Part shown: piece after piece, positions 30,626 through 53,829 of the stretch
How positions within the stretch are numbered: the first letter of the stretch is position 1
Layout: each line of letters opens with the position of its first letter
Sequence record: NC_007023.1
Source of the DNA: Escherichia phage RB43
DNA length: 64,000 nucleotides
Direction: 5' to 3' (one strand)
Notes under the pieces: model-generated
What the model was told of the DNA's origin: nothing
The model's input: the letters and a program-made list of their open reading frames with translations, nothing else
Database searches by the model: none
Position numbers and translations under genes: made by a program

Positions 30626-30636
30626 GGGAAATTTAC

Positions 30637-31722: not shown

Positions 31723-31730
31723 GGGGAATA

Positions 31731-32594: not shown

Positions 32595-32612
32595 GGGGCG
32601 TAAGCCCCTTTT
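32595..32612 (+). terminator. Rho-independent terminator
   Basis: GGGGCGTAAGCCCC hairpin followed by TTTT. Confidence 0.6.
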
Positions 32613-32621
32613 GAGGTTAAT

Positions 32622-33365: not shown

Positions 33366-33915
33366 ACATACTCCAAAGCATATCCAAAAATATAATGTGA
33401 CTTATCGCCCGTTGACTATTGGTGATGTGAATGACACGGATAACTTCATTTTAGAAGGGAAGGTGTTTAAGCATCAACGCGATTATGTGTATCTTATGGC
33501 CTTGTTTGATTCAATCAATAAAGATACTGTCGACCTACAAATCAAGTGTCCTGATTGCGGTGAACTGATTAAGTTCACGTTAAACCGTCATCATATCATG
33601 ATTGACGAGTTCGAAGAAAAACTCTTCGGTAATGAAATTAAAATTGCGGTCAGCCCGTATGTTACCGGAAAAGAAGAATTACCGGATCTGATTAAGTTTG
33701 TTGTCATCGACGGCGAACAAATCTTATGGGAAGACTGCAAAGAGTCAGAAAAGGAAGCGGTGTTAGATAGCATCGACTATCCGGTCTTTAAATCGATAAA
33801 TACCGCGCTGGAATCCCCAGCAATGGTCGCAAACATTCCGGTCGGGTGTTCGTGTGGCTATAAACACATAGTCTCTCTGCGTGGCTTAGAGGCGTTTTTA
33901 AAGGTGGTTGGATAA
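33358..33915 (+). CDS. 26: Baseplate hub subunit gp26 (putative), zinc-ribbon containing
   Basis: 185 aa with CPDCG...CSCGYKH cysteine pairs; adjacent to gp25. Confidence 0.45.
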   Translation: MRKHTPKHIQKYNVTYRPLTIGDVNDTDNFILEGKVFKHQRDYVYLMALFDSINKDTVDLQIKCPDCGELIKFTLNRHHIMIDEFEEKLFGNEIKIAVSPYVTGKEELPDLIKFVVIDGEQILWEDCKESEKEAVLDSIDYPVFKSINTALESPAMVANIPVGCSCGYKHIVSLRGLEAFLKVVG

Positions 33916-34308
33916 ATGGCTGTTAACCTTCGCTTACTATACAGCGATATCGATCCGAACCTTACGAAAGATTGGAATAAAGATGTTGCCGCCTCGAAAG
34001 GGGCGGCAGCAGTAAAGAACAGTCTGATCGGTATCGTTACTACCCAGAAAGGCACACGTCCTTTCGATAGCAATTTTGGATGTGAGATCGGGGAACAGAT
34101 ATTCGAAAACATGAACCCGCTAACAGCGGAATCAGTACGAACTTCGATTACCTCCGCAATACGAACCTACGAACCCCGCGTTTATAACCTTAATGTTGAA
34201 GTGATCCCGCAGTATGACGAAAACGCGATTACTGTTACGATTTACTACAGCATCATTGATGAACCGGAAGAAGTAGAAAAAATCAAACTCCAGCTTTCAT
34301 CCTCATAA
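33916..34308 (+). CDS. 25: Baseplate wedge subunit gp25
   Basis: LYSDIDPNLTKDWNKDV...GTRPFDSNFGCEIGEQIFENMNPLTAESV...YEPRV...IKLQLSSS near-collinear with T4 gp25. Confidence 0.9.
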   Translation: MAVNLRLLYSDIDPNLTKDWNKDVAASKGAAAVKNSLIGIVTTQKGTRPFDSNFGCEIGEQIFENMNPLTAESVRTSITSAIRTYEPRVYNLNVEVIPQYDENAITVTIYYSIIDEPEEVEKIKLQLSSS

Positions 34309-34310
34309 CA

Positions 34311-34333
34311 AAAAGCCCCTTTCGGGGCTTTTC
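34311..34333. terminator. Bidirectional terminator at strand switch
   Basis: AAAAAGCCCCTTTCGGGGCTTTT flanked by A-run and T-run between convergent genes. Confidence 0.7.
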
Positions 34334-34831
34334 TTATTCCATCACGATCCAGCCCATTAGCTGTTGATATCGCAATTCGAACGGGGTGATGAAAGAGCGG
34401 TTATTGATAACCTTCGTCCCGTTGTAGGACTTAATCACTTCCTCACCACGAAGCACATATTCGTATACTTCGTCCATAGTGTCGTAACGCACTTCTTCGA
34501 CTTCGAAGCAGAAGTTGGAATACTCAATCATCCCAATCTTGTTCGCGTAACGGCGTTCGATACAACCCTGTTTTTCAACCAGAGTGATCGCAGTATCAAT
34601 GAACTGCGCAAGTGCTTGCATGAAATTACCACATTCGACTTCACGCCCCCCGCTTGAGATAGCCAGATAAACGCGGCTCAATCCATCATTGCCGATGTAA
34701 CCGATGCAATCACCACCAATGTTAACAGACCACACTTTGCCAATCGGCCCCATACCCATTCTGTTTTCACTGCGAGAAACACCTTTCAGTAACAGTGCCA
34801 TGATGCCGCCGCGAACGTAATTCATTTTCAT
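34334..34831 (-). CDS. hypothetical protein (165 aa)
   Basis: First ORF of the minus-strand block. Confidence 0.55.
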   Translation of the reverse strand: MKMNYVRGGIMALLLKGVSRSENRMGMGPIGKVWSVNIGGDCIGYIGNDGLSRVYLAISSGGREVECGNFMQALAQFIDTAITLVEKQGCIERRYANKIGMIEYSNFCFEVEEVRYDTMDEVYEYVLRGEEVIKSYNGTKVINNRSFITPFELRYQQLMGWIVME

Positions 34832-34841
34832 GATAAGCCCC

Positions 34842-35072
34842 TTATTTTTTCAGGTTGATTAACCAAGACGGTTGGGTTTCTAAACTAACCTCTTTCCAAG
34901 CATATGCAACACTATAACCGGAATACGTCTGACATACAACAGCATTTTCATTTAAATATTTCACTTTGTGATCTGCCTCTTGTTCATTCAGGGCAGCACA
35001 TACGATATTCTTTTCATACACTCCGCCGTTTGGCTGGATAATTGTTTCTTCAATCAGATAAACGCTGTTCAT
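34842..35072 (-). CDS. hypothetical protein (76 aa)
   Basis: ORF. Confidence 0.5.
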   Translation of the reverse strand: MNSVYLIEETIIQPNGGVYEKNIVCAALNEQEADHKVKYLNENAVVCQTYSGYSVAYAWKEVSLETQPSWLINLKK

Positions 35073-35281
35073 GCTAATTCCTTCTCGATTGCTTCGATGA
35101 TGTGGAGAACATAACCATTCAATCTTTCGGCTTGTTCAGCGGCTTCGATCATACCGTAACGAGGAACTTCTAAAACGTCGAAACCTTCGATCGGGTTGCT
35201 TTCGATATCAACGATGATATAGCTTTCACCGATCACAGCACCTTTTCTCCAGTCTTTTACGAATTTCATTTTAGCGTTCAT
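35069..35281 (-). CDS. hypothetical acidic protein (70 aa)
   Basis: ORF downstream of conserved promoter cassette. Confidence 0.5.
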   Translation of the reverse strand: MNAKMKFVKDWRKGAVIGESYIIVDIESNPIEGFDVLEVPRYGMIEAAEQAERLNGYVLHIIEAIEKELA

Positions 35282-35319
35282 TTTCTCGTTCCTTTTGTCT
35301 GTTCCGTTTCAACACCCCT

Positions 35320-35348
35320 AATATACAAAAACCCCTCGCGATATGCAA
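35320..35348 (-). promoter_or_regulatory. Conserved promoter cassette (TTGCAT-N17-TATATT)
   Basis: Minus-strand CCCCCTTGCATATCGCGAGGGGTTTTTGTATATT then leader GTTGAAACGGAACAGACAAAAGGAAC. Confidence 0.55.
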
Positions 35349-35360
35349 GGGGGTTTTCGA

Positions 35361-35753
35361 TTAATTAAACTTATTGTACAGCATGAAGTTTACACCGATT
35401 GAACTTAGGGAGGTACAAGCTCGTTCCAGGTCGTCCGCTTCAATTTCGATAACGAATTTCGTTCGTATTAAAGCTGGCGCGACTTCTTCGACAGAAGGTG
35501 TAGTGACTTCTACGACAGGTTTATATACGTTCTTATCATGATCAGGAACATCATCGAGATACTTCAACATTTGATTGATGTATCGTTTATCTGAGTATAC
35601 AAACCGCTTCGCATTCGTCAGAAGAGAACGCATTTTAGAGCGGGTTGTAACTTTTGTACTTTCTTTGTATCCGCTACTTTCGGTGTTAAGAAAGTTTGGA
35701 TTGCTATCCAGCATAATGATAGACGCTAGATTGTTTTTGTGGAAGTATCCCAC
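35361..35753 (-). CDS. hypothetical protein (130 aa)
   Basis: ORF. Confidence 0.5.
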   Translation of the reverse strand: MGYFHKNNLASIIMLDSNPNFLNTESSGYKESTKVTTRSKMRSLLTNAKRFVYSDKRYINQMLKYLDDVPDHDKNVYKPVVEVTTPSVEEVAPALIRTKFVIEIEADDLERACTSLSSIGVNFMLYNKFN

Positions 35754-36004
35754 GAGTTCATTACGAGACTGAGAGAAACAAGCACATAAGCCTCTTCACC
35801 TACCAGATACATTTGTATATGTACTGGCGCTGTAAACATTTTGTTTATGATTTTATGGAATCGAGTGTTTTCCGATAAACTGCGTTGTCTTGTATAACTT
35901 TTGAAAATGTTATCTTTGACAATGGTCGCCATCGTTTCGATGTGGTTTAGCGATTTCCCAAGTAACGGGTTCAGAAAAACTTCTTTTTTCGGTACATAAG
36001 CCAT
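35726..36004 (-). CDS. hypothetical protein (92 aa)
   Basis: ORF. Confidence 0.45.
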   Translation of the reverse strand: MAYVPKKEVFLNPLLGKSLNHIETMATIVKDNIFKSYTRQRSLSENTRFHKIINKMFTAPVHIQMYLVGEEAYVLVSLSLVMNSWDTSTKTI

Positions 36005-36020
36005 ATTTCAAATTCTCTTT

Positions 36021-36311
36021 TTAGTGCATGAAAGATTTAACGTACTTCAATATTTCTTCACGACATGTGTCAACGCTTGTGTTTTCGGCAATCATAGCAT
36101 GACAAAGTATCTCACCGTCAAGCCAAAACGTCAGCATGTATTGAATATCACGACCTTCTGTTGCTTCCTGATGATACTTGATTTTCGCGAAAGCAGTTTC
36201 GATACTTTCGGTTACTGTCAACATTTCGGAATCACCATCTACAGCAGCCATTTCCCCAGCTTCTTCGCTGAATTCGCTTTCCAGTTCTTCCCAGTATACT
36301 ATCGTTATCAT
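36021..36311 (-). CDS. hypothetical acidic protein (96 aa)
   Basis: ORF. Confidence 0.5.
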   Translation of the reverse strand: MITIVYWEELESEFSEEAGEMAAVDGDSEMLTVTESIETAFAKIKYHQEATEGRDIQYMLTFWLDGEILCHAMIAENTSVDTCREEILKYVKSFMH

Positions 36312-36444
36312 TGATTACCCCAAACATACTTTACATTTGCATAAAGGGCATTCAGCCTCTTTGATGCGTAGACGTTTCGTTGTTGTCTTCTTCTCCGTAT
36401 TGTGATCATATACATGAAGACAACGGAAGCAGATCACCCAACGT

Positions 36445-36912
36445 TTATCCGTCATAACCGCCACCGCACTTAACCTCACCTTCAATGAACAGTTCGCGGT
36501 TGTCTCTCAAAAGATTGTATTTCTTTTCGAGTTCCGGCCCGAATGCGTCAGCGTCTTCATAATAGCTATAATTATAACAACCGCATTCATCATCCCATTC
36601 AGGTTCATCACCGCGTTCGTTGAAGTGTACGACTTTGAGATCGTCAACTCCAGACTCTTTCATTTTATCCCAGATATACCGGATGTCAACGCTATGGTAA
36701 CTGAATGCTTCAAGGGTGATGTTATCACCATCGATTTGAGGGATACCCCATTTAGGACGTTGGTCATCGGTGATGATATCAAGCAAAGATTCTACGTTTT
36801 CGTGTCCGTAAATCTTCGCGACCTCTTCCTCTTTACCAGGACGAACAAGCCCGATCCCGATAATAAAGCTACTGCTTGAACTGTTACTTACAAAACCAGA
36901 ACGGATCTTCAT
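36445..36912 (-). CDS. Acidic protein, paralog A of MKIRSGFVSNSSSSSF family (155 aa)
   Basis: First 16 residues identical to ORF 40362-40844; Glu/Asp/Tyr/Cys-rich remainder. Confidence 0.6.
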   Translation of the reverse strand: MKIRSGFVSNSSSSSFIIGIGLVRPGKEEEVAKIYGHENVESLLDIITDDQRPKWGIPQIDGDNITLEAFSYHSVDIRYIWDKMKESGVDDLKVVHFNERGDEPEWDDECGCYNYSYYEDADAFGPELEKKYNLLRDNRELFIEGEVKCGGGYDG

Positions 36913-37100
36913 CGTCTTGCCTCATATTTCGCGTTCTCCGCGATTTTTTCTTGATAGATGTTATATGACATTACCAGAGGCGCAATCGCCACGATAAGCC
37001 CTATAAAGCACACAGAGAACTCACGTTTATTGAAAGCCAGGAACGCAATTGCGCTCCCGACTACAAACACACCTAATGCCAGTAAGAAGAATAGCGTCAT
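36909..37100 (-). CDS. small membrane protein (63 aa)
   Basis: Two hydrophobic helices. Confidence 0.45.
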   Translation of the reverse strand: MTLFFLLALGVFVVGSAIAFLAFNKREFSVCFIGLIVAIAPLVMSYNIYQEKIAENAKYEARR

Positions 37101-37714
37101 TTCGGCAACGTGTCCATTTTGCGTGATTTTTCCAACAGGGTGTTGATTACCGTATCCATCGCCTGTTCTGTATCACCATCATGATAGATGATCGCGGTTT
37201 GATGCAAACCTTTCACCAGACGATTAATAATGTACGCCATTTCGGTCGGTAACAGTTTACCCGTTTCGTTGAATTTTTCAAACAGTTTGAACAGTTCTTC
37301 ATTATTCCCTTTCTTACTGAAATTGAAATCGTGCATACCAGACAGAAGACCATCCAGATACAGAACTGTTTTGTTATCAGAGCGGAGGTGTCCACCGATT
37401 TTGTAGTAGTTGCTGAAAACGTATGGCGCTTCACGAACATCATTGATTTCGAAACCAGCATCATCGATATTGCCTACGTGGGAGAAGAAATCCGCATCGT
37501 TATCGAACAGGTTGATCGCGCCTTTCTTGTACGGGAAGCCAGCCAGGTTAATGACTCCCTTTTCATACGCATCATCGTTATCAACGACAACGTATTCAGG
37601 AAGCATAGGGGCATACGGTTTGTTTTTGTCGTGGTTTTCGCGATACGCTAAAGGTTCAGCCAGATAGAGGATATCGCCTTGTTTGACTTCATCCCAAAAG
37701 ATATTACGTGACAT
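37097..37714 (-). CDS. hypothetical protein (about 205 aa)
   Basis: ATG(rc) 37714 with GAGGAA RBS just after hairpin following vWA gene. Confidence 0.5.
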   Translation of the reverse strand: MSRNIFWDEVKQGDILYLAEPLAYRENHDKNKPYAPMLPEYVVVDNDDAYEKGVINLAGFPYKKGAINLFDNDADFFSHVGNIDDAGFEINDVREAPYVFSNYYKIGGHLRSDNKTVLYLDGLLSGMHDFNFSKKGNNEELFKLFEKFNETGKLLPTEMAYIINRLVKGLHQTAIIYHDGDTEQAMDTVINTLLEKSRKMDTLPK

Positions 37715-37754
37715 ATTAAATTCCTCAATATGCCCCCTTTCGGGGGCTATTTCA

Positions 37755-39974
37755 TTACAGTTTAACTTCTTTTTCTTCCAGAACGATTTCGCAATCGAAT
37801 GTTGCACCTTCCCAGAATTTATGCGGGATAATGTCAGTCGCTTTAACCGATACTTTGGTTTCTTCAAAATCCAGATCCGCAAACCAGGCGTGGCCTACAA
37901 CGATACCATACATTACACGGCTCAGGCGCTTGTTCAGTGCGCGTACTTCGTTGATGGTTGCCTTTGTTTCTTTATCAAGGTACTCGATTACCTTATCCTT
38001 GTCAAGCGCTGCGAGTTCAGCTTTAACAGAATCGTAAGCCCACAGGATGATCAGGTCGCCGTTGTTCAGTTTCTTCTTACCTTCGGCACGTTTCGCAACG
38101 GTTGCCGCTACAGCAGGAAGGGAGGAAACACCCTTGATTTTCAGATTCAGTTCTTTCGACATATAAACATCAGTCGAATCGGTACTGGTTACTTTCGGGG
38201 AGAATCCATAATCACGAATACCCTGTTCAGATAACCATTCACCAGCGGCTTCACCGTATTTCTGTTTCAGACCTTCGGCATTACGTAAACCGATCGCGTC
38301 GTCACGGAAGAACTTCATCACCTTCTGGCGACCTTTCAGGATTTCCAGACGGATAGAGTCGTTTACATACTCTTTACCGGAGATCCCGCGAGTCATCGCA
38401 CGGTTAACCAGGGGCAGACTGGTAAAGTCAACCAGTACCGACATGCGGTCTTCACCGATTTTTGCCAGCGGCTTGATAGTCAAACCAGAAGCGCGAAGGT
38501 TTTTCAGTGTCGGAATATCAGTTTCCAGCGGCAGAACCTTAACGTTTACGATACCGTCTTTAACGATGGTAAAGTTACGTACCTGCTTAGTTTCGATCTG
38601 TTCAGGCAGTTTCAGTTCTTTCTGTTTGCTTTCTGGGATAGTTACGTAACCCATCAGATCCGTGTTAATGGAAATGTTAGGACGTGAACTGTTACCGACC
38701 AGGTGCTTAACCGATACTTTGGTTGTAGTCTGGGTAAATTTCGGTGTCCAGATTTCATGCGTTACCATTTGCGCCGCAAGTGCTTTGCGTTCTTCCGGTG
38801 TTTTCGCGTTTGCAATCTGTTCAGACAGTTGATCCAGAGTATCATCTTCTTTCTGTACCGTCTGACGGCCTGTGCGGTTGTACGCCCAGTGTTCAGAGGA
38901 CAGGTCGATCACAGTGTCGGTTTCTGCCAGCAGTTCGAGAGCGTCAACCAGAGTGAACGCGTTTTCGTCTGGAACCATGTTGTAATCAACACCATCGAGC
39001 AGACGTTTAGCCGGATCAACTACCGCTTCCGCGATCAGGTCTTTCGCGTTGGAATAGTCCTGTTTGGTAAAGCAGTTATCATACGCCTTAATCAGACGAA
39101 CATCACCCAGCTTTTTCAGCACTTTCCATGCAAGGTCAGGGTTCATTGTGTGTAGCGCATGATACAGCACGACATACAGAACCTGTTCACCTTCCAGAGT
39201 AGCCGGATCGAAACCGTCGATGTCGTTGATTGCGTTATCACCCAGCGCCCAGATGTTTTTGATGTGCTCAGGAACCAGAACAACACCGTTTGCAGCGTTC
39301 AGGACATACACACGCCCTTCGTCCAGGTAGATAGCATGGGTTGCGTCAGCAACTTTAACTTCGACGCGAGCGGAGGTTTGCGCGGTGATGATTTCAGCAA
39401 ATGCTGGCTCGTATGCGTCGAAACCTTCAACGAATTTATGCAATGCGTTGGTTGCTTCTGCCATTTTTTCCAGCAGAGGACGGTTAACATAATAGCCGTA
39501 TTCCAGGAATGCAATGCTGTTAAACGTCAGCGGGAGAACCGCACACGCTTTCAGGATGTCATCGGTACGCCAGCAGTTATCATAACCATCAGTCAGGAAG
39601 ATCAGGCTGTTCAGGTTGCCGTTTTCGGATTGCAGGTCGGTTGCGATTTCAGCAGCCAGATTCAGTGGTTCAACAAAACCAGTACAACCAGTAGGTTTCA
39701 GATAACGGTCGATCGCGGTACAGATATTGGTCAGATCCGATACGTTGCTAACCTTCTCACCACGGAACACAGTACCGTAATCGCCTTTGCTGGAGAAGTA
39801 CAGGATCGAAACGGTGTCATCCTGTTTAACCAGACTCGCCAGGTTTGCTTTCAGGTGCTTACGGATCTTCGGCAGTTCGTTATACATTGAACCGGAAACG
39901 TCGCAAACGAAAACGTGGTTGGTCGGAGTCGGCTTAGATACTGCGTTTTTGAATTCGATATTTGTAATTGACAT
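37755..39974 (-). CDS. Large vWA (MIDAS-containing) domain protein, 739 aa
   Basis: N-terminal vWA with DxSxS MIDAS motif (HVFVCDVSGSMYNELPKIRKHL...ILYFSS...FLTDGYDN); about 530-aa C-terminal region unrecognised. Confidence 0.7.
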   Translation of the reverse strand: MSITNIEFKNAVSKPTPTNHVFVCDVSGSMYNELPKIRKHLKANLASLVKQDDTVSILYFSSKGDYGTVFRGEKVSNVSDLTNICTAIDRYLKPTGCTGFVEPLNLAAEIATDLQSENGNLNSLIFLTDGYDNCWRTDDILKACAVLPLTFNSIAFLEYGYYVNRPLLEKMAEATNALHKFVEGFDAYEPAFAEIITAQTSARVEVKVADATHAIYLDEGRVYVLNAANGVVLVPEHIKNIWALGDNAINDIDGFDPATLEGEQVLYVVLYHALHTMNPDLAWKVLKKLGDVRLIKAYDNCFTKQDYSNAKDLIAEAVVDPAKRLLDGVDYNMVPDENAFTLVDALELLAETDTVIDLSSEHWAYNRTGRQTVQKEDDTLDQLSEQIANAKTPEERKALAAQMVTHEIWTPKFTQTTTKVSVKHLVGNSSRPNISINTDLMGYVTIPESKQKELKLPEQIETKQVRNFTIVKDGIVNVKVLPLETDIPTLKNLRASGLTIKPLAKIGEDRMSVLVDFTSLPLVNRAMTRGISGKEYVNDSIRLEILKGRQKVMKFFRDDAIGLRNAEGLKQKYGEAAGEWLSEQGIRDYGFSPKVTSTDSTDVYMSKELNLKIKGVSSLPAVAATVAKRAEGKKKLNNGDLIILWAYDSVKAELAALDKDKVIEYLDKETKATINEVRALNKRLSRVMYGIVVGHAWFADLDFEETKVSVKATDIIPHKFWEGATFDCEIVLEEKEVKL

Positions 39975-44559: not shown

Positions 44560-45554
44560 TTGTAATACCCCAGAACATGATCTTTGTATACCTGTTCGAT
44601 AAAGTCATTCCAGAATTCCCGATCGACTTCTTTCGGATAGGTAGAGATTGCAGCAAGGCGTTCAACTTCGCCCATCACTTCCTCCAGTTTTTCCTGTACT
44701 TCGGCAAACGGGACATTACCAGCTTTAACCGATTTCAACAGGTCACTCTCAGGAAGAGGGTACACGATATCGCCGTGTTTGTAAATCTGTACTAACTGCA
44801 TACCACCGCGCAATGCGTGACTTAATGCTTTCCAATCGATCCCGTTGTTGGCTTCTGCTTGTCGTGCGCGTTCGCCATATTCATCCCAGAGCTTGTACAC
44901 GGATTTCTTCATTTCCGCTACGGTGATCGTGAACTGGAATTTACGACCCAATACTTCATAGAAATTCTGCATACCGCCTTTTTCGCTATAATGCAAAATA
45001 GAACGACAGAATTCATTGGTCGGTAGTTGGTCTTTGATGTCGCCAACTTTGATGTTTTCTATTGCATCACCCAGATTGGAAGGCATACGCACAACGCGAG
45101 TATTTGGGGTGTCTTGTAACACGTCATACACTTCACGCAGTGCAGCCAGGCGAGAACCTTTCACACCATATTTCGCGGCTTGCTTACGGACATAACCGAA
45201 CAGGCCAGTTAACTCCGTAGTGTAGAAACGCCAACGGTTAGCGCGGATATACTGCCAGATTTCAGAGTTAGCGATCAGCTTGCTATCATCAGCATGAAGC
45301 ATATCGAGCGCTACGGTATCACCATCACACGCAAGGCTGATGAACTTAGGCAGACTATACAACTGACGGTCTACGTCATCAACGGTGTTTTTAGAGTTCT
45401 TATCGCCCGTGCTCGTGTCGATAGTCTTCGGGGCTTTACCTAGCAAGATATCGCGTGGATGCGGGAGGAAGATCCCTTTATAATCTTTGTCGCTTGTCGG
45501 GGTGTTCAGCCCGTACAGGTGAGAACCGAACACAGTTTCCATTACAATTTTCAC
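44556..45554 (-). CDS. Pol-beta superfamily nucleotidyltransferase-like protein (332 aa)
   Basis: N-terminal minimal NTase motif VFGSHLYGLNTPTSDKDYKGIF (GS...hDhD) with later acidic residues; helical C-terminal domain. Confidence 0.55.
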   Translation of the reverse strand: MKIVMETVFGSHLYGLNTPTSDKDYKGIFLPHPRDILLGKAPKTIDTSTGDKNSKNTVDDVDRQLYSLPKFISLACDGDTVALDMLHADDSKLIANSEIWQYIRANRWRFYTTELTGLFGYVRKQAAKYGVKGSRLAALREVYDVLQDTPNTRVVRMPSNLGDAIENIKVGDIKDQLPTNEFCRSILHYSEKGGMQNFYEVLGRKFQFTITVAEMKKSVYKLWDEYGERARQAEANNGIDWKALSHALRGGMQLVQIYKHGDIVYPLPESDLLKSVKAGNVPFAEVQEKLEEVMGEVERLAAISTYPKEVDREFWNDFIEQVYKDHVLGYYK

Positions 45555-45943
45555 AATTCAACTCCCAGAGTTTTTGCAATTTCTTTCAATTGGTCAGTTG
45601 TGATATCAGGAACAGTCACACCGTAACTATGTCCAAACACGTATTTGATCTTAGCGGATAATTCCTCGCGATACAACTTTTCTTTGTACGCCTCTTCGCT
45701 GCGATAAACCTTAATACCGTTCCAATCGTTAGAACTTCCGGTTTTGCGGTCCAGCTTTTCGACGCAATATGATTTAAGATCTGTTTCTGTAGGGTTAGGC
45801 GATGCGTACAGATACTGACGCGCAACCTTATGAACATACAGAATACGCGGTTTTACACGGCAACGGTTATCATATCCACGTTCACCAGGATCATATAAGG
45901 TATCGCCTACTTTAACATCTGTTAAACTCATTTCATTTTCCAA
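45551..45943 (-). CDS. hypothetical protein (130 aa)
   Basis: ORF overlapping NTase start by 4 nt. Confidence 0.5.
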   Translation of the reverse strand: MENEMSLTDVKVGDTLYDPGERGYDNRCRVKPRILYVHKVARQYLYASPNPTETDLKSYCVEKLDRKTGSSNDWNGIKVYRSEEAYKEKLYREELSAKIKYVFGHSYGVTVPDITTDQLKEIAKTLGVEL

Positions 45944-46179
45944 CGTTTTGTTTTATCACAATAGAATACTGGCAATTTGGACAGGACAGGAGTCACCACA
46001 TCTTCACCAGTTTTCGTGTTATGCGTCATTTCGATTGTCAGCGAACGACCAGGCACGGGTTTCACAATATCCAGTTCCATGATCTCCCGATTACCTTTTG
46101 TGTTGATTTCTGCAACATAGTAATCGTTCCCGTTGATGTTAACAACATCACCCATAATTACGCTTCTGCTGTGTTTCAT
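45928..46179 (-). CDS. hypothetical protein (83 aa)
   Basis: ORF. Confidence 0.45.
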   Translation of the reverse strand: MKHSRSVIMGDVVNINGNDYYVAEINTKGNREIMELDIVKPVPGRSLTIEMTHNTKTGEDVVTPVLSKLPVFYCDKTKRWKMK

Positions 46180-46565
46180 TTGTTAATAAACCTTAACGTA
46201 ACGTGCAGGGATTCTAACACTCGTGCGTCAGTACCGTCAATAATCATCATTCCGATAAATTCTTTAGAGCTAACGGAATACATGCGACATAACAGGGAAC
46301 CATCTTTCGCGATATATTCAACGATATACTCACGGCGTGATGATTTGAACGAATCACCGACCATGACCGGACGTTCGACATTCTGGCGTTTTTTGGCTGT
46401 ATAACACAACTCGTTTTCGCCGTTTGGTGCGCAATCTTTACTTCCGATCGACATATCCGTTACAGTAACAGAATTCACAGAACCGCCGATCAGTAAGCTG
46501 GGTTCGCCAGCACCTACTTTCATGATTAGTGTCGAACGGTTTGCAACGGTTTCAGTCACAAACAC
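46176..46565 (-). CDS. hypothetical protein (129 aa)
   Basis: ORF; start uncertain. Confidence 0.45.
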   Translation of the reverse strand: MFVTETVANRSTLIMKVGAGEPSLLIGGSVNSVTVTDMSIGSKDCAPNGENELCYTAKKRQNVERPVMVGDSFKSSRREYIVEYIAKDGSLLCRMYSVSSKEFIGMMIIDGTDARVLESLHVTLRFINK

Positions 46566-46716
46566 GTAGCACTGTGGATTCGTTTTCTTTGGCGATTGAC
46601 TGCAAAATGAATTTGGTCTTCTCAGGCGTTCTCGAATGTCCGATTTAAAACACGATCACCGATCGTCAATGTTGTGGTTGAATCGACATCTTCGGTAGTA
46701 CGAATAATTGCTGTTT

Positions 46717-46986
46717 TCATGATAATTTCCTCTCAAATTCTTCATCAGATTTCCAGTACACGTTAAAGTTACGGCAATCGTGATCAGAAGTCAACGTATA
46801 TTTTTCATTTGTTTTTTCATCGGTGATAACCATCGTTTCATTCTCGATCGAGTCAACACCGTACACAAACACTTTGTCACCGCGTTTATTCAGGAACGCA
46901 TCACCTGTTTCAATCAACTGCCAGCAACTAACTGGCAACCCGCCCGAACAGATCGGACGGTTTACTAAACAGTAAGGATGTTTCAT
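46717..46986 (-). CDS. hypothetical Cys-containing protein (89 aa)
   Basis: ORF. Confidence 0.45.
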   Translation of the reverse strand: MKHPYCLVNRPICSGGLPVSCWQLIETGDAFLNKRGDKVFVYGVDSIENETMVITDEKTNEKYTLTSDHDCRNFNVYWKSDEEFERKLS

Positions 46987-47171
46987 TAATCAGCAAGCCT
47001 TATATTGTTCGGATCGGGAACGAAAGTATCCTTTTGAGTAACCATAAACACCAGGAAAGTAGCGATTTCAGGATCATCAATCACGTTGAATTTACGCTTA
47101 CCTTTCCAACGCACAGCGAGTTTGCCATTGTCCAGTTTCTTGATTGCTGCGACTTCTGATTTCGTAGTCAT
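46986..47171 (-). CDS. hypothetical protein (61 aa)
   Basis: ATG(rc) 47171 with AAAGGAG RBS downstream of conserved promoter. Confidence 0.5.
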   Translation of the reverse strand: MTTKSEVAAIKKLDNGKLAVRWKGKRKFNVIDDPEIATFLVFMVTQKDTFVPDPNNIRLAD

Positions 47172-47199
47172 GATTATCTCCTTTCGTTTCAGTACCCCT

Positions 47200-47228
47200 A
47201 ATATAACAAAAGCCCTACACGAATGCAA
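47200..47228 (-). promoter_or_regulatory. Conserved promoter cassette (TTGCAT-N17-TATATT)
   Basis: Minus-strand GCCCTTGCATTCGTGTAGGGCTTTTGTTATATT then leader ACTGAAACGAAAGGAG. Confidence 0.55.
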
Positions 47229-47333
47229 GGGCTTTTTCAACTTATCGACAGAAAGGACAACTAAAAGAGTCGCCGCTTCCACCATGTTTACGACACGCCG
47301 ATTTCTCGATCGGTGTCATTGTTAAAATTTTCA

Positions 47334-48392
47334 TTAGATACCTGTAAATGCTACGACAATCTGATAGTGGTCATCGAAGAATTCCCCTTGTCGTTGTACG
47401 ACCTCATGTAAGGGCATCCAGAACGCGTCTAACGCATCGTCAGAACCGCCCATAATACGTGGTAAACTTCCATCATTGTTAGGTTCTAACTTGATGTATT
47501 GCGCCACAGTCGGTTTTGAGAAGTGTACAGAACGCTTCGGATGATCGAACAGCATCGAATTGCGGATTGAACCACGAATAACCTTTTCAGGAACCTTGAT
47601 CCGAACCTCTTCGAGCAGTTCGCGGATCGCACAATCCAGGAACGTTTCATTTGCGTTTTTGTGTCCACCTGGCAGGGCTAGTGCGCCTTTTCCTGGTGCA
47701 AACTTACGACGAATTACCAGCAGGTGATTGTTGCACACAACCACGTTATCACCCGTGCAGCAGTTTAGCGCTTCTGGGTATGGGTAATTTTTGAATTTCT
47801 CCAATTCACTTTCCCATTTTTCGAATTCGTAGTACAGTCGCCAAAATGTATCCGTCATCATCCATGAATTGATATAACTCACAGTAGACGGAGGAACATA
47901 ACGAGATAGTTTCTTGTCCCATCCATTCTTATGCAAAAAGGATGGTTGGTCGTAAATCGGTCGCAGATAAATCTTCCCATCAACCTTAACCGGATCTACC
48001 GGAACATGAGTCCATCCAAACGCTTTCAGCCAGTATGAATCAGCATCTTTTTCGTAACCATAGATCGCGATGTTATCGCCTTTGGTTTCGTTGATTGCTG
48101 TACGAACAGAAGTTTTCCATTTTTCTTCGTTGTAAAGATAATCAGGAATATGAGCAAACTTAACACGACAAACATCTTCGTATTTGTATTCAGTCATCAG
48201 CCACGAAAAGATCATTCTTTCGCGTTCGTTCGCGGTCAGAGGATTTAAAACGTTGGGGTATGCGTAGGCAGAACCCAGGAGGATGTAAACGGTCTCCGAC
48301 TCTTCCAGTGCTTTACGCACCATCGCCGCATGACCATTATGGAAAGGTTGGAATCTGCCAATCACGACAGCTTTATCAAATTTGTGTTTCAT
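47334..48392 (-). CDS. Bifunctional NMN adenylyltransferase / Nudix hydrolase (NadM-Nudix type)
   Basis: N-terminal HxGH motif GRFQPFHNGH; C-terminal Nudix box GGHKNANETFLDCAIRELLEEV; GGAG RBS before ATG(rc) 48392. Confidence 0.85.
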   Translation of the reverse strand: MKHKFDKAVVIGRFQPFHNGHAAMVRKALEESETVYILLGSAYAYPNVLNPLTANERERMIFSWLMTEYKYEDVCRVKFAHIPDYLYNEEKWKTSVRTAINETKGDNIAIYGYEKDADSYWLKAFGWTHVPVDPVKVDGKIYLRPIYDQPSFLHKNGWDKKLSRYVPPSTVSYINSWMMTDTFWRLYYEFEKWESELEKFKNYPYPEALNCCTGDNVVVCNNHLLVIRRKFAPGKGALALPGGHKNANETFLDCAIRELLEEVRIKVPEKVIRGSIRNSMLFDHPKRSVHFSKPTVAQYIKLEPNNDGSLPRIMGGSDDALDAFWMPLHEVVQRQGEFFDDHYQIVVAFTGI

Positions 48393-48588
48393 AACGTGCT
48401 CCACGTTTAAAGGGTAATCATAAAACAGACGCAATAATCAATACACCAAGCAAACCGCCAATAAAGCCGAAGAATGACGAAATGAAGATAGACAATATAA
48501 TCTGTTTTATGTTCATTGTAGTATTCTCGTTTTAAGAGTCAAGCCCCCAGAACGGGGGCTTTAAAATCTTATTTACGAGAATCGAAAA

Positions 48589-49494
48589 TCACTTTGCCAG
48601 CGTAATCAGAACCCATGACAGTTTGAGGTACACCACCTTGTAGCGGGTAGAGTAGTTCATCTGTACATCCAGTTCTTTCCAGCGGATCATTTCTGGTGTA
48701 ATGGTGCGCTGCAACACGGCGTTCGCTTCTGCTTCTTTACGGGCCGCATACAGTTTAGCATCAGCATCACGTTCGTTTGCGAGTGCTTCATTTTCACGCG
48801 CCTGACGATTTGCTTCTGCCTGTTTTACCTGTTGTTGAGAAGTTTGCTCAACCTTCGCCAGTTCAGCACGAGCGGCGTTAACCTGTTCTTCACGGATCTT
48901 CGTGTTAGTTACCTGTTCCATGATAACATCTGGCAGGGTAATATCCTGCAAGAATACCTGTTTCACGGTGTAACCATACGGTCGCGCATACTCTTCAACT
49001 TCCTGCTGAATCGCAGTTTGCAACTGGTTCTGGATCTTTGCGTCGAACAGATCCTGTGCTTTCGGAACTGATTTACCGAATTCGCGAACAGTGGACAGCA
49101 ATTTTTCGGTTACGTATTTATCCAGAGCTTGTTCCTGGTCGCCAGCGTTGATACGGTTAATCGGTGCTTTGTTACCGTCGAATTGCAACATCACGGTCAT
49201 GTCAACAGTCGATTTAAATTTATCCTGGGACGGAACCTGCAACTTGTCGAATTTCTTCGCGATATCTTTCGTACTGAAAGTATCGAAGTCAGCCAGTGGG
49301 TTTACGATATGGAAACCAGGCATGACAGGTTTCGGAGAAACTTTACCCATAAAGGTCTGGGTTTTGACCGTACCGTCCTGTACGATGGTAAAGGAGTTCG
49401 GAACCAGCCACAGTGCAGCAACTACGCCCAGAGCGATCAGAGTGGTTTTCTTCGGGTTGTCACGGATAGTATTAATATTCATAGTATGTCTCAT
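48589..49494 (-). CDS. SPFH/band-7 (prohibitin-like) membrane protein
   Basis: N-terminal TM helix then SPFH-like core and long Ala/Glu/Gln-rich coiled coil. Confidence 0.6.
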   Translation of the reverse strand: MRHTMNINTIRDNPKKTTLIALGVVAALWLVPNSFTIVQDGTVKTQTFMGKVSPKPVMPGFHIVNPLADFDTFSTKDIAKKFDKLQVPSQDKFKSTVDMTVMLQFDGNKAPINRINAGDQEQALDKYVTEKLLSTVREFGKSVPKAQDLFDAKIQNQLQTAIQQEVEEYARPYGYTVKQVFLQDITLPDVIMEQVTNTKIREEQVNAARAELAKVEQTSQQQVKQAEANRQARENEALANERDADAKLYAARKEAEANAVLQRTITPEMIRWKELDVQMNYSTRYKVVYLKLSWVLITLAK

Positions 49495-49713
49495 TTGATT
49501 AAAGTTTATGTTTCAATTCGATAGTTATTCTATCATCACCATTTCGCTTGTCAAATACTTTTTTAAGAAAGTTTTGTCAGCTTGTAAATCGTTTGATAGC
49601 ACAAGCCTTTGATCTCGTCCAGTATGTTCTTCAATGAACTGTCTACTGATTCGTAGATATCGTTGGCTTCGGTGGCTATTTTACGGAGATACGCTACCGT
49701 GTCAAGCACATTT

Positions 49714-49947
49714 TCAACTTTTAATACGGGGTTTATAACGTCCTGTAATGCCTATATGGATTTCGGTGAATTTGTCTACCAAATCCTGCATATCTTCGTA
49801 AAAACCCTCGTATGCCTTATGTTGCGAATATGACCCCGTCATAAAATGTGCGCTGTGCATATACGTAACAGACATCAGGCATGTGCCAATAAAGGCATCT
49901 ATTTTACTTGTATTATCGCGCTCGACGATTTCGTTAAACGTTTGCAT
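49714..49947 (-). CDS. hypothetical protein (77 aa)
   Basis: ORF. Confidence 0.45.
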   Translation of the reverse strand: MQTFNEIVERDNTSKIDAFIGTCLMSVTYMHSAHFMTGSYSQHKAYEGFYEDMQDLVDKFTEIHIGITGRYKPRIKS

Positions 49948-49957
49948 CTTTCATCCC

Positions 49958-50242
49958 TTATGAACGGTGAATAGAAGCAAATTCAGTTGCTACCCTAAGC
50001 CCTAAGCGTTTGCATTCAGGTTCAGATTTACACTGCTTCTGCTGCCATTTTCGTTCCATGTAATTATAGAATAGTTCACTGGTATTTACGCTGGGAGGGA
50101 TGGTGTCTAGATACACCTGTAGCGCTGCATTGATGTAATAGTCGAACTCTTTTGCGACCACAGAACGGTCGTCTGCTTGCGATGCTGGAGACAAAATTAA
50201 CAAACCAAACATCAGCGCTTTTGATATGCGTTTAATGTTCAT
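49958..50242 (-). CDS. secreted small protein with signal peptide (94 aa)
   Basis: Signal peptide MNIKRISKALMFGLLILSPASQA; Cys pairs. Confidence 0.55.
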   Translation of the reverse strand: MNIKRISKALMFGLLILSPASQADDRSVVAKEFDYYINAALQVYLDTIPPSVNTSELFYNYMERKWQQKQCKSEPECKRLGLRVATEFASIHRS

Positions 50243-50347
50243 AGCAATTCTCTAAGTGCTTACGGATCAACAATAGACCCGTTCCTGTATATATTTATAG
50301 CAAAAAAGGGGCTAAAAGCCCCTTATGTTAAATTAATCTAAAAATAC

Positions 50348-50741
50348 TTATGTTATATCGTACCAGCATAAACCACGTTCATAAGCACGGATCTTATTGG
50401 CATTGTGAATGTTTTCATCCCATCCAATCACACCCGCTTTCATGCGTTTCAGTTCCTGGCGCATTTTAACGCGTACTTTTGAATCAATCTTTTTCTTTGC
50501 GATCGAAAGCATCGCGGGAGATATCACCATGCGCCTTGTTGCCGTCACGATTCAAATTGTTATCGAACCGGATATATGCGCAACCTGATTTATGTTTCCA
50601 GTTGGTTGTGTACCAACGAAGACCATCAGGATCGCGCCCGTGTTGTGCATAATACTCAGAATATGCCTTTGTCTCTTCGATCTGTTCCAGAGAAGAAAGG
50701 TCACGGATAGGAACATATTTGTTACGGTAAGTACGGCTCAT
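50348..50741 (-). CDS. hypothetical protein, apparently split at an A5 run (sense) near 50500 (about 129 aa if fused)
   Basis: Two overlapping protein-like frames joined by removing one A from GAAAAAG. Confidence 0.35.
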
Positions 50742-50771
50742 AGATATCTCCTTTTGTTTTCTAATTGCAGA

Positions 50772-51353
50772 TTAGCAATCTACGCCAACTTTATCAAGCA
50801 CTTTTTCATGATAATGTTTCCGGCATAACGAAACATATTTGTCTTCGGCTCCGATTTCGACTTGCTCCCCTTCGGTTACGAAGTTGCCTTGTGCGTCGAT
50901 ACGCGCGACCGTGGTTGCTTTGCGCCCACAGTGACACATTCCCCGTAGTTCTCGGATCTCGTCAGCCCATGCGAGCAACCAGTAAGAACCCTCGAACAGA
51001 TTCAACTGAAAGTCGGTACGCAGCCCGTAACACATTACAGGAATTTCGAGTTCATCAACAACGCGACACAGATCGAAAACGTTTTTCTTCGAAAGGAACT
51101 GTGCTTCGTCAACAAAAATACAGGAAATATTATTCCGGCGTTGAATGTCCCAGAACAGATCCATGCTGGGTGAAATCAGTTCACATGATGCGCTTAACCC
51201 TACGCGAGAAGACACCGTATGTGAACGAGTATCAAGCATAGGCTTGTAAATCACTACGTTCATACCACGTTCTTTGTAGTTGTATGCGTCGGTCAGCAGT
51301 CGTGCGCTTTTACCAGCATTCATTGATGCGTAATGATAATACAGTTTAGCCAT
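50772..51353 (-). CDS. tk: Thymidine kinase
   Basis: 193 aa; P-loop SMNAGKSARLL, VDEAQFL, zinc ribbon CHCGRKA...SLCRKH; collinear with T4 Tk. Confidence 0.92.
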   Translation of the reverse strand: MAKLYYHYASMNAGKSARLLTDAYNYKERGMNVVIYKPMLDTRSHTVSSRVGLSASCELISPSMDLFWDIQRRNNISCIFVDEAQFLSKKNVFDLCRVVDELEIPVMCYGLRTDFQLNLFEGSYWLLAWADEIRELRGMCHCGRKATTVARIDAQGNFVTEGEQVEIGAEDKYVSLCRKHYHEKVLDKVGVDC

Positions 51354-51529
51354 TTGCAGCGTCCTTGATCTCTTTCTTCACGAACAGAATGATATCTTCG
51401 ATTTTGTTTTCGATGTAGCACATGTTTGACATTACGCGCTTCTGTATCATCATCGGTCGCGTAGTCCATGTATAATTCACCCAGTTCTTTCAGTTTGTGC
51501 GTCAACAGCTTTTCTTCTTGCGGTCTCAT
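51320..51529 (-). CDS. hypothetical protein (69 aa)
   Basis: ORF. Confidence 0.4.
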   Translation of the reverse strand: MRPQEEKLLTHKLKELGELYMDYATDDDTEARNVKHVLHRKQNRRYHSVREERDQGRCKWLNCIIITHQ

Positions 51530-51711
51530 TCGCGAGATTCCCTTCTTTCATCGTCGATTAGCTGGTCGATGAAATCAACGATGTCATCAAACCAATCTAC
51601 GGCTTCTTGAGCAGAAACCGAACCTTTCCCACTACCACTCATAAAGCGTTCGCGAGCGTCAGCAAACTTTTCGAGTTTTGAATACAGCTTTTCTTTATGT
51701 TCCTGGATCAT
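51526..51711 (-). CDS. hypothetical acidic protein (61 aa)
   Basis: ORF. Confidence 0.45.
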   Translation of the reverse strand: MIQEHKEKLYSKLEKFADARERFMSGSGKGSVSAQEAVDWFDDIVDFIDQLIDDERRESRE

Positions 51712-52200
51712 GATAAATCTACCGTTTTCATGTTAACGTAGGGATCGAAATGTACCACGATGATTGGATAGTCGCCAGTGGCCTTATCAATGATGTCATA
51801 GATGCGCATCCAATCGCCCCCAGCAAGCCCCGCACCAATAAGAGGGGTAACGATAGGCAATTGAACAGGACACGCCTTAGCGCGTTCTACAGCAGATTTG
51901 AAGCATGATTCAATCGCATCATAATCGACTTGTGGGCCTTCACCCCAAAATTTGTATTGGGTGTACGCGTTAAACAGAAGTTTGTTTCCGTCCTGATAAA
52001 CGGAGTTACGCCCCAACTTAGATTGATTGCCCTTCATCGTCATTGCGTCTTCTTTAAACGCACCAGGGATCTTTTTCTTCACTTCTTTGGCGATACCCGC
52101 GCCCATGTTACCAGAAACCAGTTACCACCCCATGAATTAGGTGTACATCGCGATTAAGGAACAGTTCAACCGCGTTACCTTTGATTTCTTTAATGATCAT
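51708..52200 (-). CDS. TARG1/OARD1-like macrodomain protein, interrupted by a frameshift
   Basis: N-terminal 30-codon ORF (MIIKEIKGNAVELFLNRDVHLIHGVV...) then +1 frame MGAGIAKEVKKKIPGAF... resembling the TARG1 CRMGAGIAVLFKKKFG core; frames join if one T is removed from sense GGTTTC or a 7-nt unit from GTTACCA-GAAACCA-GTTACCA. Confidence 0.6.
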
Positions 52201-52434
52201 TGTTTATTACCCATTCGATAGCCGATCCCAATAACCAGCCCCATTATAATCACAACAGTGATCAGTATTGCAAATTGCATACCTATGCTCATTTGAATTG
52301 ATCATCCCATATTTGCCACGCTTCCAGTTCATCATTGTATTCAGGTAATGAACGTTCGCCAGGCTTCATTAAACAGTACCATATGATAATTGCAACAGCA
52401 ATAACCATTCCATAGAAAATAATTAGTCCTATCA

Positions 52435-52758
52435 TCAATATAATCCTATTCCGGCGTTGTACTCGTCAACCAAGTAGGTACGCAACTTTTCACAACGTTC
52501 CTTATTTGGTGCGCTAGTACATAGTTTCATCATCGGTTCAGACTGCAAAAACTCACGCTGTTTAGCCAGCTTTTGACGCTTAACCAGGTGCGCGTTTTCT
52601 TCGCCCCACACATAAGCAGCGTCCAGTTGTTCCGCGATCACCTGATAACATACAGCAGTATCTTTAATGTCGCGATGGTCGCAGAGTTCAGAAAGACGGT
52701 TGTCGTCTGCATACGCGAAACCAGAAACCAGAGTCAATAAAAGCGCAAGTTTTTTCAT
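52435..52758 (-). CDS. secreted small protein with signal peptide (107 aa)
   Basis: Signal peptide MKKLALLLTLVSGFAYA; four Cys. Confidence 0.55.
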   Translation of the reverse strand: MKKLALLLTLVSGFAYADDNRLSELCDHRDIKDTAVCYQVIAEQLDAAYVWGEENAHLVKRQKLAKQREFLQSEPMMKLCTSAPNKERCEKLRTYLVDEYNAGIGLY

Positions 52759-52759
52759 G

Positions 52760-53425
52760 TTAACCTCGATATGTCACGTCTTCGATAGGGTTATAGTAAT
52801 GATTCTTGCAAATATACGCAAGTGTTTTTCGTAGGCTTGCGCTGGCAAACAGAGGATCGCGGTTGTACGTCATAGAACGATAGGTGTGTACTTCCCAGAC
52901 TTCCCGATCAGTATCATACACGAAGCAATAGCTTTCATATTCAGACAGCATATGATCCATGATGTCGAAATACAGTTGTTTGTTTTCGTTCATCTTAACA
53001 AACGGCTTGATCAACTTGATTGCTTCATAAACCTGGTCAAGATTGCTATGGTCTTCATTCATCGCAACACGAATAACTGATTGATTCGTGTCTGGATTAT
53101 ATGTGTTGGTTGCAACACCAAGTTCATAAAAGAAGTTAGCAGCATCGCGATATGTTTCACCACCAGTGCGGGGAGAATTCAGGTAATACTCAATACGTTT
53201 TTCTACAGAGGAACTCCGCATAATGACGGCCTTTATGTCATCAATTCGTTCCTGCAAGTCAATACGCTTTTTGTTTAGTTCCGTAGCACGTTTTTGGAGT
53301 GGTTCAAGCTGGGTTCTTACTTCGTCAAACTCACTTGTAATGGCTGTCAACTGCTTTTCTAAGGTTTGGCTCAACATAGAAGTTGCGTTTTCGTTTACCT
53401 TATTCATAGCTTCTGCGTATGTCAT
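52760..53425 (-). CDS. hypothetical protein with N-terminal coiled coil (221 aa)
   Basis: ORF. Confidence 0.5.
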   Translation of the reverse strand: MTYAEAMNKVNENATSMLSQTLEKQLTAITSEFDEVRTQLEPLQKRATELNKKRIDLQERIDDIKAVIMRSSSVEKRIEYYLNSPRTGGETYRDAANFFYELGVATNTYNPDTNQSVIRVAMNEDHSNLDQVYEAIKLIKPFVKMNENKQLYFDIMDHMLSEYESYCFVYDTDREVWEVHTYRSMTYNRDPLFASASLRKTLAYICKNHYYNPIEDVTYRG

Positions 53426-53427
53426 GA

Positions 53428-53829
53428 TTATTCCCCTAATACATATTCAAAACGATGTTCCAGCGCATCATTAACGCTTTCGTAAACTCCCCCAATACGT
53501 GTAGCCTTACGAATGCCGGACTTGACAATATTCATGATCTCGACGTTACTACCCCAAACATTCAGGTTGAAATACAATTCGCAATCGATCGGATGGTCGT
53601 TTGTGTCGTAATACATGTCACAACCTTCGCAAACAAACAGTGTACGCTTTTCGTCGCCATACTGGAAGTGAATGTTAAACGCAGACATACTATCTTTATC
53701 AACAGTAATGTCAATGATGCGAACCTTTGGGTTGCTTTTCAGTTCGGTAAGAACACTTTGGATAACATGCAGAGTGTTCAGCTTGACAATCCCTACTCTG
53801 CCTACAATGACTCGATGTGATGTACTCAT
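53428..53829 (-). CDS. hypothetical protein (133 aa)
   Basis: ORF downstream of conserved promoter. Confidence 0.5.
   Translation of the reverse strand: MSTSHRVIVGRVGIVKLNTLHVIQSVLTELKSNPKVRIIDITVDKDSMSAFNIHFQYGDEKRTLFVCEGCDMYYDTNDHPIDCELYFNLNVWGSNVEIMNIVKSGIRKATRIGGVYESVNDALEHRFEYVLGE

Follow-up and report, generated by a model that had tools for sequence, protein, structure and literature searches.

Escherichia phage RB43 is a T4-like myovirus of the genus Pseudotevenvirus. We analysed a 64,000-nucleotide stretch of its genome (NC_007023.1), here called the window, and focused on a gene on its minus strand which encodes a protein of the SPFH/band-7 superfamily. As it stands in the window, this gene is an ATG-to-stop open reading frame (ORF) at 48589..49494 (-), encoding 301 amino acids (aa) from its first ATG. 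A sequence-only reading of the window had claimed the gene at those positions, and such an ORF does lie exactly there on the minus strand, but its 3' end is wrong and its start is probably at 49482. The surrounding sequence (47000-51500) shares 99.8% identity with two Pseudotevenvirus RB43 records (RB43-GVA), and 98% with Buttiauxella phage GuL6.

The more likely start is the second ATG (49482), which is the annotated start in RB43-GVA, RB16 and GuL6, and a GAG/GGA element lies 8-11 nt 5' of it. Reading the window ORF from this ATG gives the public protein RB43ORF139c (297 aa), aberrant tail included. The tail results from a frameshift: alignment of the window with the resequenced RB43-GVA, together with the protein alignment, places a missing base at 48638, in a homopolymer A-run at codon K282. 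Because this one base is missing, the final 15 residues in the window (VVYLKLSWVLITLAK) are out of frame, and they replace an invariant C-terminal motif. The RB43-GVA, RB16 and GuL6 proteins share the C-terminal end ...RYKGGVPQTVMGSDYAGKVIFDSRK. In the window, the true C-terminal coding segment is at 48569..48637 (-), out of frame, and it encodes the conserved tail GGVPQTVMGSDYAGKVIFDSRK, in which G283, P286, T288 and G291 are invariant across a family alignment of 32 homologues. With the start at 49482 and an intact 3' end, the protein has 304 aa and the intact gene occupies approximately 48569-49482 (from 49482 to 48569, minus strand). Residue numbers for parts of the protein refer to this 304-aa form.

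Over 8.5 kb of the window (45000-53500) aligned to RB43-GVA, there are 13 single-base indels and one substitution, most of them at base repeats. For example, an indel at 49728 disrupts rI.-1 (49563-49947) and another at 50516 disrupts an ORF at 50348-50741; both genes are split in the window and intact in RB43-GVA, RB16 and GuL6. A sequencing artefact is the economical explanation because indels in the same stretch split conserved ORFs that are intact in three relatives, and the indels are probably errors in the older RB43 record. Alternatively, the RB43 genome itself could carry a truly frameshifted, C-terminally damaged allele, with a protein that could not close a cage. The aberrant tail is indeed present in both the window and the public RB43ORF139c, but single-base indels at this density, concentrated at base repeats and splitting several other ORFs conserved in relatives, are a pattern typical of sequencing errors in an old record, so we regard a damaged allele as very improbable.

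The frameshifted tail would remove a structurally important element of the protein, because the C-terminal region forms the cap in solved SPFH cages (PMC12624060). In the public RB43 protein it deletes the most conserved C-terminal motif, and the correction is worth keeping. The comparison with RB43-GVA also reveals a compensating indel pair in the NadM/Nudix gene (47940 and 47974), an ORF around 46176-46720 that is split or shifted by indels, and four extra C's clustered at 52112-52128.

SPFH fold and predicted cage architecture

Both sequence and predicted structure support membership of the SPFH/band-7 superfamily. The 301-aa window ORF matches Pfam Band_7 (PF01145) at E=2.5e-15, with 57.4 bits against a curated cut-off of 23.6, over residues 46-220 (approximately 42-216 in the 304-aa numbering), and it matches PHROG 200 at E=2e-74. 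Its nearest solved sequence is E. coli QmcA (E=3.5e-6 using the single sequence, 2.9e-7 using the family profile), at approximately 23% identity over 259 columns. When compared with PDB sequences, the family profile also matches prohibitin-2 (E=9e-5) and, marginally, HflC (E=3e-3). Judging from these sequence matches, no single SPFH subfamily clearly claims the RB43 protein.

We ran AlphaFold on the intact 304-aa form as a monomer with a 32-sequence alignment, which gave a model with a mean predicted local distance difference test score (pLDDT) of 77.6. In this model, a transmembrane (TM) helix (residues 10-29) leads into a strand/helix core (31-182), followed by a long helix (185-260), a second helix (263-280) and C-terminal strands. 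When the model was searched against the PDB with Foldseek, the best 37 matches (E 8e-15 to 2.5e-7) were SPFH cage proteins, all full-length protomers except for one stomatin fragment; major vault protein and stomatin core domains came after them. Foldseek assigned a probability of 1.0 to erlin1/2, prohibitin 1/2, HflK/C, stomatin, QmcA, flotillin and major vault protein, at 12-20% identity. For the erlin, prohibitin, HflK/C, stomatin and QmcA protomers, E-values were 8e-15 to 1e-8 with approximately 270-310 columns aligned. Template modelling scores (TM-scores) for SPFH cage protomers were near 0.5 with a large root-mean-square deviation, which is expected because the angle between core and long helix differs when a free monomer model is compared with a cage subunit. 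The sequence-only reading, which made its identification depend on support for an SPFH fold, is therefore upheld by Pfam Band_7, by the QmcA and prohibitin-2 profile matches and by Foldseek, and its SPFH-like core agrees with the above-cut-off PF01145 match and the Foldseek matches to SPFH cages.

The N-terminal TM helix (residues 10-29; 49396..49455, -) is preceded by a short K/R-rich tail and coincides with a hydropathy maximum of 1.97. It corresponds to the only hydrophobic segment of the protein (residues 13-34), and the sole 19-mers with a Kyte-Doolittle value above 1.6 begin at residues 13-16. The SPFH alpha/beta core (residues 31-182; 48937..49392, -) is delimited by the Pfam match, by strands and helices of SPFH1/SPFH2 type and by Foldseek. 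Beyond it, AlphaFold predicts a single long helix (residues 185-260; 48703..48930, -), which is uninterrupted over its 76 residues, rich in Ala, Glu, Gln and Arg, and equivalent to the CC1 wall helix, and then a second helix equivalent to CC2 (residues 263-280; 48643..48696, -). The predicted C-terminal strands (288-292 and 298-302) have low confidence. The earlier description of this architecture (N-terminal TM helix, SPFH core, long helices) is thus seen in the model, its TM helix has both a single hydropathy peak and a predicted helix behind it, and its Ala/Glu/Gln-rich stretch is borne out by the composition of residues 191-262 (A 16, E 10 and Q 8 of 72).

The same description included an extended coiled coil, which needs qualification. 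The helices are long and form a coiled coil in the SPFH sense, but hydrophobic periodicity at 3.5 residues in the 76-residue helix was no better than in shuffles (p=0.33), so this test gave no sign of a classical coiled coil in residues 185-260. Lengths of CC1, counted in columns 209-317 of the family alignment (A2), change in steps of 11: 24 of the 32 sequences have 76 residues, seven have 87 (with two insertion sites) and one has 98. Insertions of 11 or 22 residues preserve the helical register, and this quantisation fits a side-by-side helical cage wall better than a two-stranded coiled coil. Extra 11-residue units would heighten the presumed cage wall without loss of register.

In solved SPFH cages, subunit number has been regressed on CC1 length (y=0.1782x+10.22; PMC12624060). 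For a CC1 of 76 residues this regression would give approximately 24 subunits, a figure that is only indicative, as helix boundaries may differ from the published ones. The GGVPxTV tail has an invariant Pro, to which a Pro aligns in the tails of HflK (LMVLPLD), HflC (VMVMSP) and QmcA (KVVMMPLE). Cage-type packing is suggested because CC1 length changes in 11-residue units and because the invariant tail aligns with the HflK, HflC and QmcA tails. By this reasoning, and by analogy with solved cages, it is likely that the RB43 protein would form a ring or cage.

The SPFH identification itself is already known, having been published in 2006: RB43ORF139c is listed as SPFH/Band 7 in Table 3 of Nolan et al. 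2006. In the RB16 record the orthologue is a 'putative SPFH domain-containing protein/band 7 family protein', in UniRef the RB43 protein is a 'Band 7 domain-containing protein', and some database homologues are already named 'prohibitin family protein'. The main text of the phiR2-01 paper mentions neither its orthologue (g069) nor band 7 nor SPFH.

Two other names in the databases should be corrected. The name 'lipoprotein' (RefSeq, and the name of PHROG 200) is wrong because the RB43 protein has no cysteine and hence none for a lipobox; 28 of the 32 homologues likewise have none, and on this sequence evidence we consider the name a propagated annotation error. One T5 record uses 'membrane protease', a name that is not supported either: only Band_7 passes in Pfam, with no protease domain, and a PHROG 'protease' match is weak (E=7e-4) and lies within the low-complexity helix.

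Transcription, context and spread

A sigma-70-type promoter-like site lies at 49527..49554 (-), approximately 45 nt 5' of the probable start. It consists of TTGACA and TAGAAT separated by 16 nt, with an extended -10 TG (TGnTAGAAT), and it matches the consensus at 11 of 12 positions. Both hexamers are identical in RB43, RB16, GuL6 and the more distant KM3, GAP161 and EcRAM-01, while the spacer varies. From this we infer that the SPFH gene is transcribed early, by host RNA polymerase, from the 49554-49527 site. A further near-consensus site (TTGACA-16-TAAAAT, 11/12) is present at 49678-49705 (-), inside rI.-1 and thus also 5' of the SPFH gene.

At the other end of the gene, a GC-rich hairpin (AGCCCCC-GTTC-TGGGGGCT; 48542..48560, -) begins 9 nt past the true stop. 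Its predicted dG is -18.5 kcal/mol (z=-3.3 versus shuffles), and it is terminator-like with no clean U-run; the stem is kept in RB16 and KM3 and the loop is variable. With a promoter-like site upstream and a hairpin downstream, the SPFH gene looks like a self-contained transcription unit.

The gene order tk - orf - rI - rI.-1 - SPFH - NadM/Nudix is kept in Pseudotevenvirus and in Klebsiella phage KM3. The downstream neighbour (47334-48434, -) encodes, according to Pfam, a bifunctional protein with an NMN adenylyltransferase (cytidylyltransferase-like) part and a NUDIX part, which has already been described for RB43 (Nolan et al. 2006). Upstream, rI encodes an antiholin (PF24205, E=7e-26). The sequence-only reading had offered lysis timing, protease activity and superinfection exclusion as possible roles. 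The SPFH protein could be imagined to influence the first or last of these, or lysis inhibition, by acting with RI in the periplasm: the genes keep the order tk-orf-rI-rI.-1-SPFH, and the predicted periplasmic location of the SPFH protein would match that of RI.

However, this linkage is confined to one phage lineage. In T5-like phages, the SPFH gene sits among tRNA genes, and its neighbours in two Aeromonas phages (PX29 and avDM4) and in a Vibrio phage of N4-like type are unrelated to those in RB43. The reverse also occurs: RB51, a T4-type phage, lacks an SPFH gene, and its rI and rI.-1 lead into the mobD cluster; rI homologues are found in 731 records whose host spread differs from that of the SPFH gene. 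Because the linkage is lineage-specific, adjacency to rI lends little support to a lysis role; we dropped it as a guilt-by-association argument and judge such a role highly unlikely.

Homologues of the SPFH protein occur in 741 of 50,697 phage records. Phage T5 carries one (T5.080; NC_005859 39791-40738), as do 446 T5-like records, in which the gene is near-core; another T5-like copy is found in phage DT57C (L004:4941-5888). T5.080 is the same protein as the RB43 copy in a different context (tRNA region versus rI region). Identity between the RB43 and T5-like proteins is approximately 79%, and Straboviridae and Demerecviridae copies share 75-80% aa identity. This near-core protein of T5-like phages, for which no published test of function was found, is shared with T4-like phages.

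At the DNA level, RB43 and T5-like copies are 75% identical in the ectodomain-coding part only; the N-tail/TM region and the flanks are unrelated. Similarity confined in this way suggests that unrelated families of virulent phages (Straboviridae and Demerecviridae) exchanged the gene, which then came under strong purifying selection. On sequence grounds, we class the SPFH gene as accessory in virulent phages; it is conserved among T4-like, T5-like and N4-like ones. Two viable T5 deletions (29191-32442 and 30661-38625; PMC11464382) come near the T5 homologue, and since they end approximately 1.2 kb short of it, they are silent on its dispensability.

More distant relatives are numerous. An exhaustive profile search of 1.84 billion representatives yielded 86 clusters when the upper E-value limit was 1e-30, 357 when it was 1e-10 and 2,056 when it was 1e-3. 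The distant members that we sampled are mostly on metagenomic contigs of up to approximately 120 kb, with one on a 615-kb Vibrio contig, and most are unnamed proteins. Further predicted SPFH folds come from many other phages, among them phages of Vibrio, Rhizobium and Streptomyces, and from giant viruses.

The gene is found in three families of virulent phages that perturb the envelope on infection, and this, together with its probable early promoter, would also suit a factor for membrane integrity or proton-motive force (PMF). An SPFH assembly of this kind might stabilise or repair the inner membrane after DNA injection, or do so against membrane-targeting abortive-infection effectors. There are precedents in bacteria: in Bacillus subtilis, an SPFH protein links PspA, of the phage-shock system, to the membrane (PMC8581546), and E. 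coli that has lost HflKC is more sensitive to aminoglycosides and to oxidative stress (PMC10434171). However, this is an argument from analogy, the neighbouring genes include none for repair and none resembling pspA, and PADLOC defence models gave no match for the SPFH protein, so we consider a membrane-integrity role unlikely.

Topology and possible role

Mean charges flanking the TM helix in the 32 homologues are +2.4 on the N side and 0.0 on the C side, and T5-like copies have a longer N-tail (about 27 aa) that is K/R-rich. Because the N-flank is more positive than the C-flank in 30 of the 32, the predicted orientation is N-in/C-out, which would put the SPFH domain on the periplasmic side, where HflK/C have theirs, and we think this orientation probable.

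Partner genes offer a second line of evidence. The periplasm-facing HflK/C have no NfeD partner, whereas the cytoplasm-facing QmcA and YqiK each do (PMC10434171). In E. coli, qmcA is adjacent to ybbJ, and yqiK-yqiJ is likewise an SPFH and NfeD pair. Pfam found no NfeD domain in the eight neighbouring proteins of the RB43 SPFH gene, and no NfeD partner is annotated beside the SPFH gene in the T5-like, PX29, Vibrio-phage or avDM4 records that we examined.

The RB43 protein and E. coli HflK/HflC have in common one N-terminal TM helix, an SPFH core, CC1/CC2, a C-terminal tail with hydrophobic residues and Pro, and the lack of an NfeD partner gene; they would also share the N-in/C-out orientation that is predicted for the RB43 protein. 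HflK/HflC structures match the RB43 model over its full length (7vhq, 9cz2, 7wi3; E 5e-13 to 1e-8). Unlike HflK, the RB43 protein has no long cytoplasmic N-tail, and unlike HflC, it has no HflC insertion. The best structural matches are erlin 1/2 and prohibitin 1/2 (9vvj, E=8e-15; 9o9z, E=2e-13), which form type-II cages in the endoplasmic reticulum and mitochondria, but these are eukaryotic hetero-oligomers with only 16-18% identity to the RB43 protein.

With moderate confidence, based on the model and on analogy, we favour an early-made and probably periplasm-facing SPFH ring or cage that serves as a scaffold in the host inner membrane. The protein would be made early in infection using host RNA polymerase and would insert in the inner membrane as a single-pass protein, with its N-terminus in the cytoplasm and its SPFH domain in the periplasm. 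It would then self-assemble into a homo-oligomer of roughly two dozen subunits, in the form of a ring or dome that fences off a patch of inner membrane. As a mimic of HflK/C, the cage might capture an inner-membrane protein of the host that has a periplasmic domain, with the FtsH protease as the most plausible candidate, and thereby alter the set of membrane proteins degraded during infection. Our moderate confidence covers the scaffold and not its client: that the protein is an HflK/C mimic with FtsH as its preferred client, a proposal modelled on HflK/C and on prohibitin with the m-AAA protease, is doubtful.

Several points weigh against the periplasmic scaffold and its FtsH client. The scaffold proposal draws on sequence and a monomer model, the FtsH link draws on analogy, and the best sequence match, QmcA, faces the cytoplasm. 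HflK/C is a hetero-oligomer of two adjacent paralogues, whereas RB43 has a single gene: no paralogous SPFH partner is adjacent, the neighbours being rI.-1 (DUF5856) and NadM/Nudix. The NCBIfam equivalog models for HflK and HflC gave no match at E<=1, and NCBIfam otherwise returned noise only. For the N-in orientation, the distant PX29 homologue has a non-positive N-flank, and the charge metric separates E. coli controls poorly (N/C: HflC +2/+2, HflK +2/+1, QmcA 0/0). We therefore dropped the positive-inside rule as a decisive test of topology and rate the periplasmic orientation as probable, not established. For early expression, promoter-like sites are not enriched in the region (10 versus 9.4 in shuffles). 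Regarding the literature, we found no functional work on phage SPFH proteins, T5.080 or RB43ORF139c, only the 2006 table and passing remarks, and according to a 2026 paper, why a phage genome should contain an SPFH gene 'remains unclear' (PMC13239085).

Some of these points would favour a scaffold with the opposite orientation (N-out, C-in). Such a cytoplasm-facing protein, similar to flotillin or QmcA, would organise inner-membrane microdomains, e.g., as a platform for phage membrane processes, and would have no link to a protease. QmcA is the closest solved sequence, both with the single sequence and with the profile, and it resembles the RB43 protein in length (305 versus 304 aa), in its Ala/Glu-rich helix and in its PSQ(E/D) core motif (VPSQDK in RB43, IPSQE in QmcA). 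It is also homo-oligomeric, with 26 QmcA chains in the entry for the QmcA-YbbJ complex (8z5g), and the charge metric does not part the E. coli controls cleanly. However, QmcA faces the cytoplasm and is encoded beside the NfeD gene ybbJ, whereas the RB43 protein has a positive N-tail and its gene has no NfeD neighbour, unlike qmcA-ybbJ and yqiK-yqiJ. The N-tail is positive in 30 of 32 homologues, and the long K/R-rich tail of the T5-like copies argues against its translocation. A cytoplasm-facing scaffold is thus an unlikely alternative to the periplasm-facing one that we favour. Knowing what the SPFH protein does may show why virulent phages bring a membrane-scaffold protein of their own.

The downstream 32-aa ORF

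The gap between the SPFH and NadM/Nudix genes contains a hydrophobic 32-aa ORF (MNIKQIILSIFISSFFGFIGGLLGVLIIASVL; 48418..48516, -), which is intact in six phages. Differences among the six are distributed by codon position as 49:8:90, which is a coding signature. Of the six related records with the ORF, EcRAM-01 alone annotates it, and the product of the ORF has no PHROG match. Alongside the frameshift correction, the corrected names and the T5 link, this conserved and mostly unannotated membrane ORF is a useful outcome of the analysis. A second promoter-like site (48542-48515) has a -10 hexamer that overlaps the ATG of the ORF.

The product of the 32-aa ORF is a possible small membrane-protein partner of the SPFH protein. 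Genes for small TM proteins lie 3' of the SPFH gene in four of five lineages, including PX29 and the Vibrio phage. We rejected the idea of one homologous small partner across lineages, as the downstream products fall in differing PHROG families or in none, and their presence may be coincidence. In its most extended form, the periplasmic proposal would have a homo-oligomeric viral mimic of HflK/C which cages FtsH or another protein with a periplasmic domain early in infection, perhaps together with the 32-aa peptide, and which has spread horizontally among T4-, T5- and N4-like phages as an all-purpose means of commandeering the host membrane. This combined scenario is distinctly unlikely as a whole.

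In avDM4, the gene directly 3' of the SPFH gene (L012:3487-3714) encodes 75 aa with a type IV pilin-like N-terminus (FTLIELMV...). This protein matches PHROG 11263 and, weakly, a 'pilin' PHROG. A similar pairing appears in an earlier listing, where 44RRORF097c, with an N-terminal methylation motif, stands beside the SPFH protein 44RRORF098c (Nolan et al. 2006).

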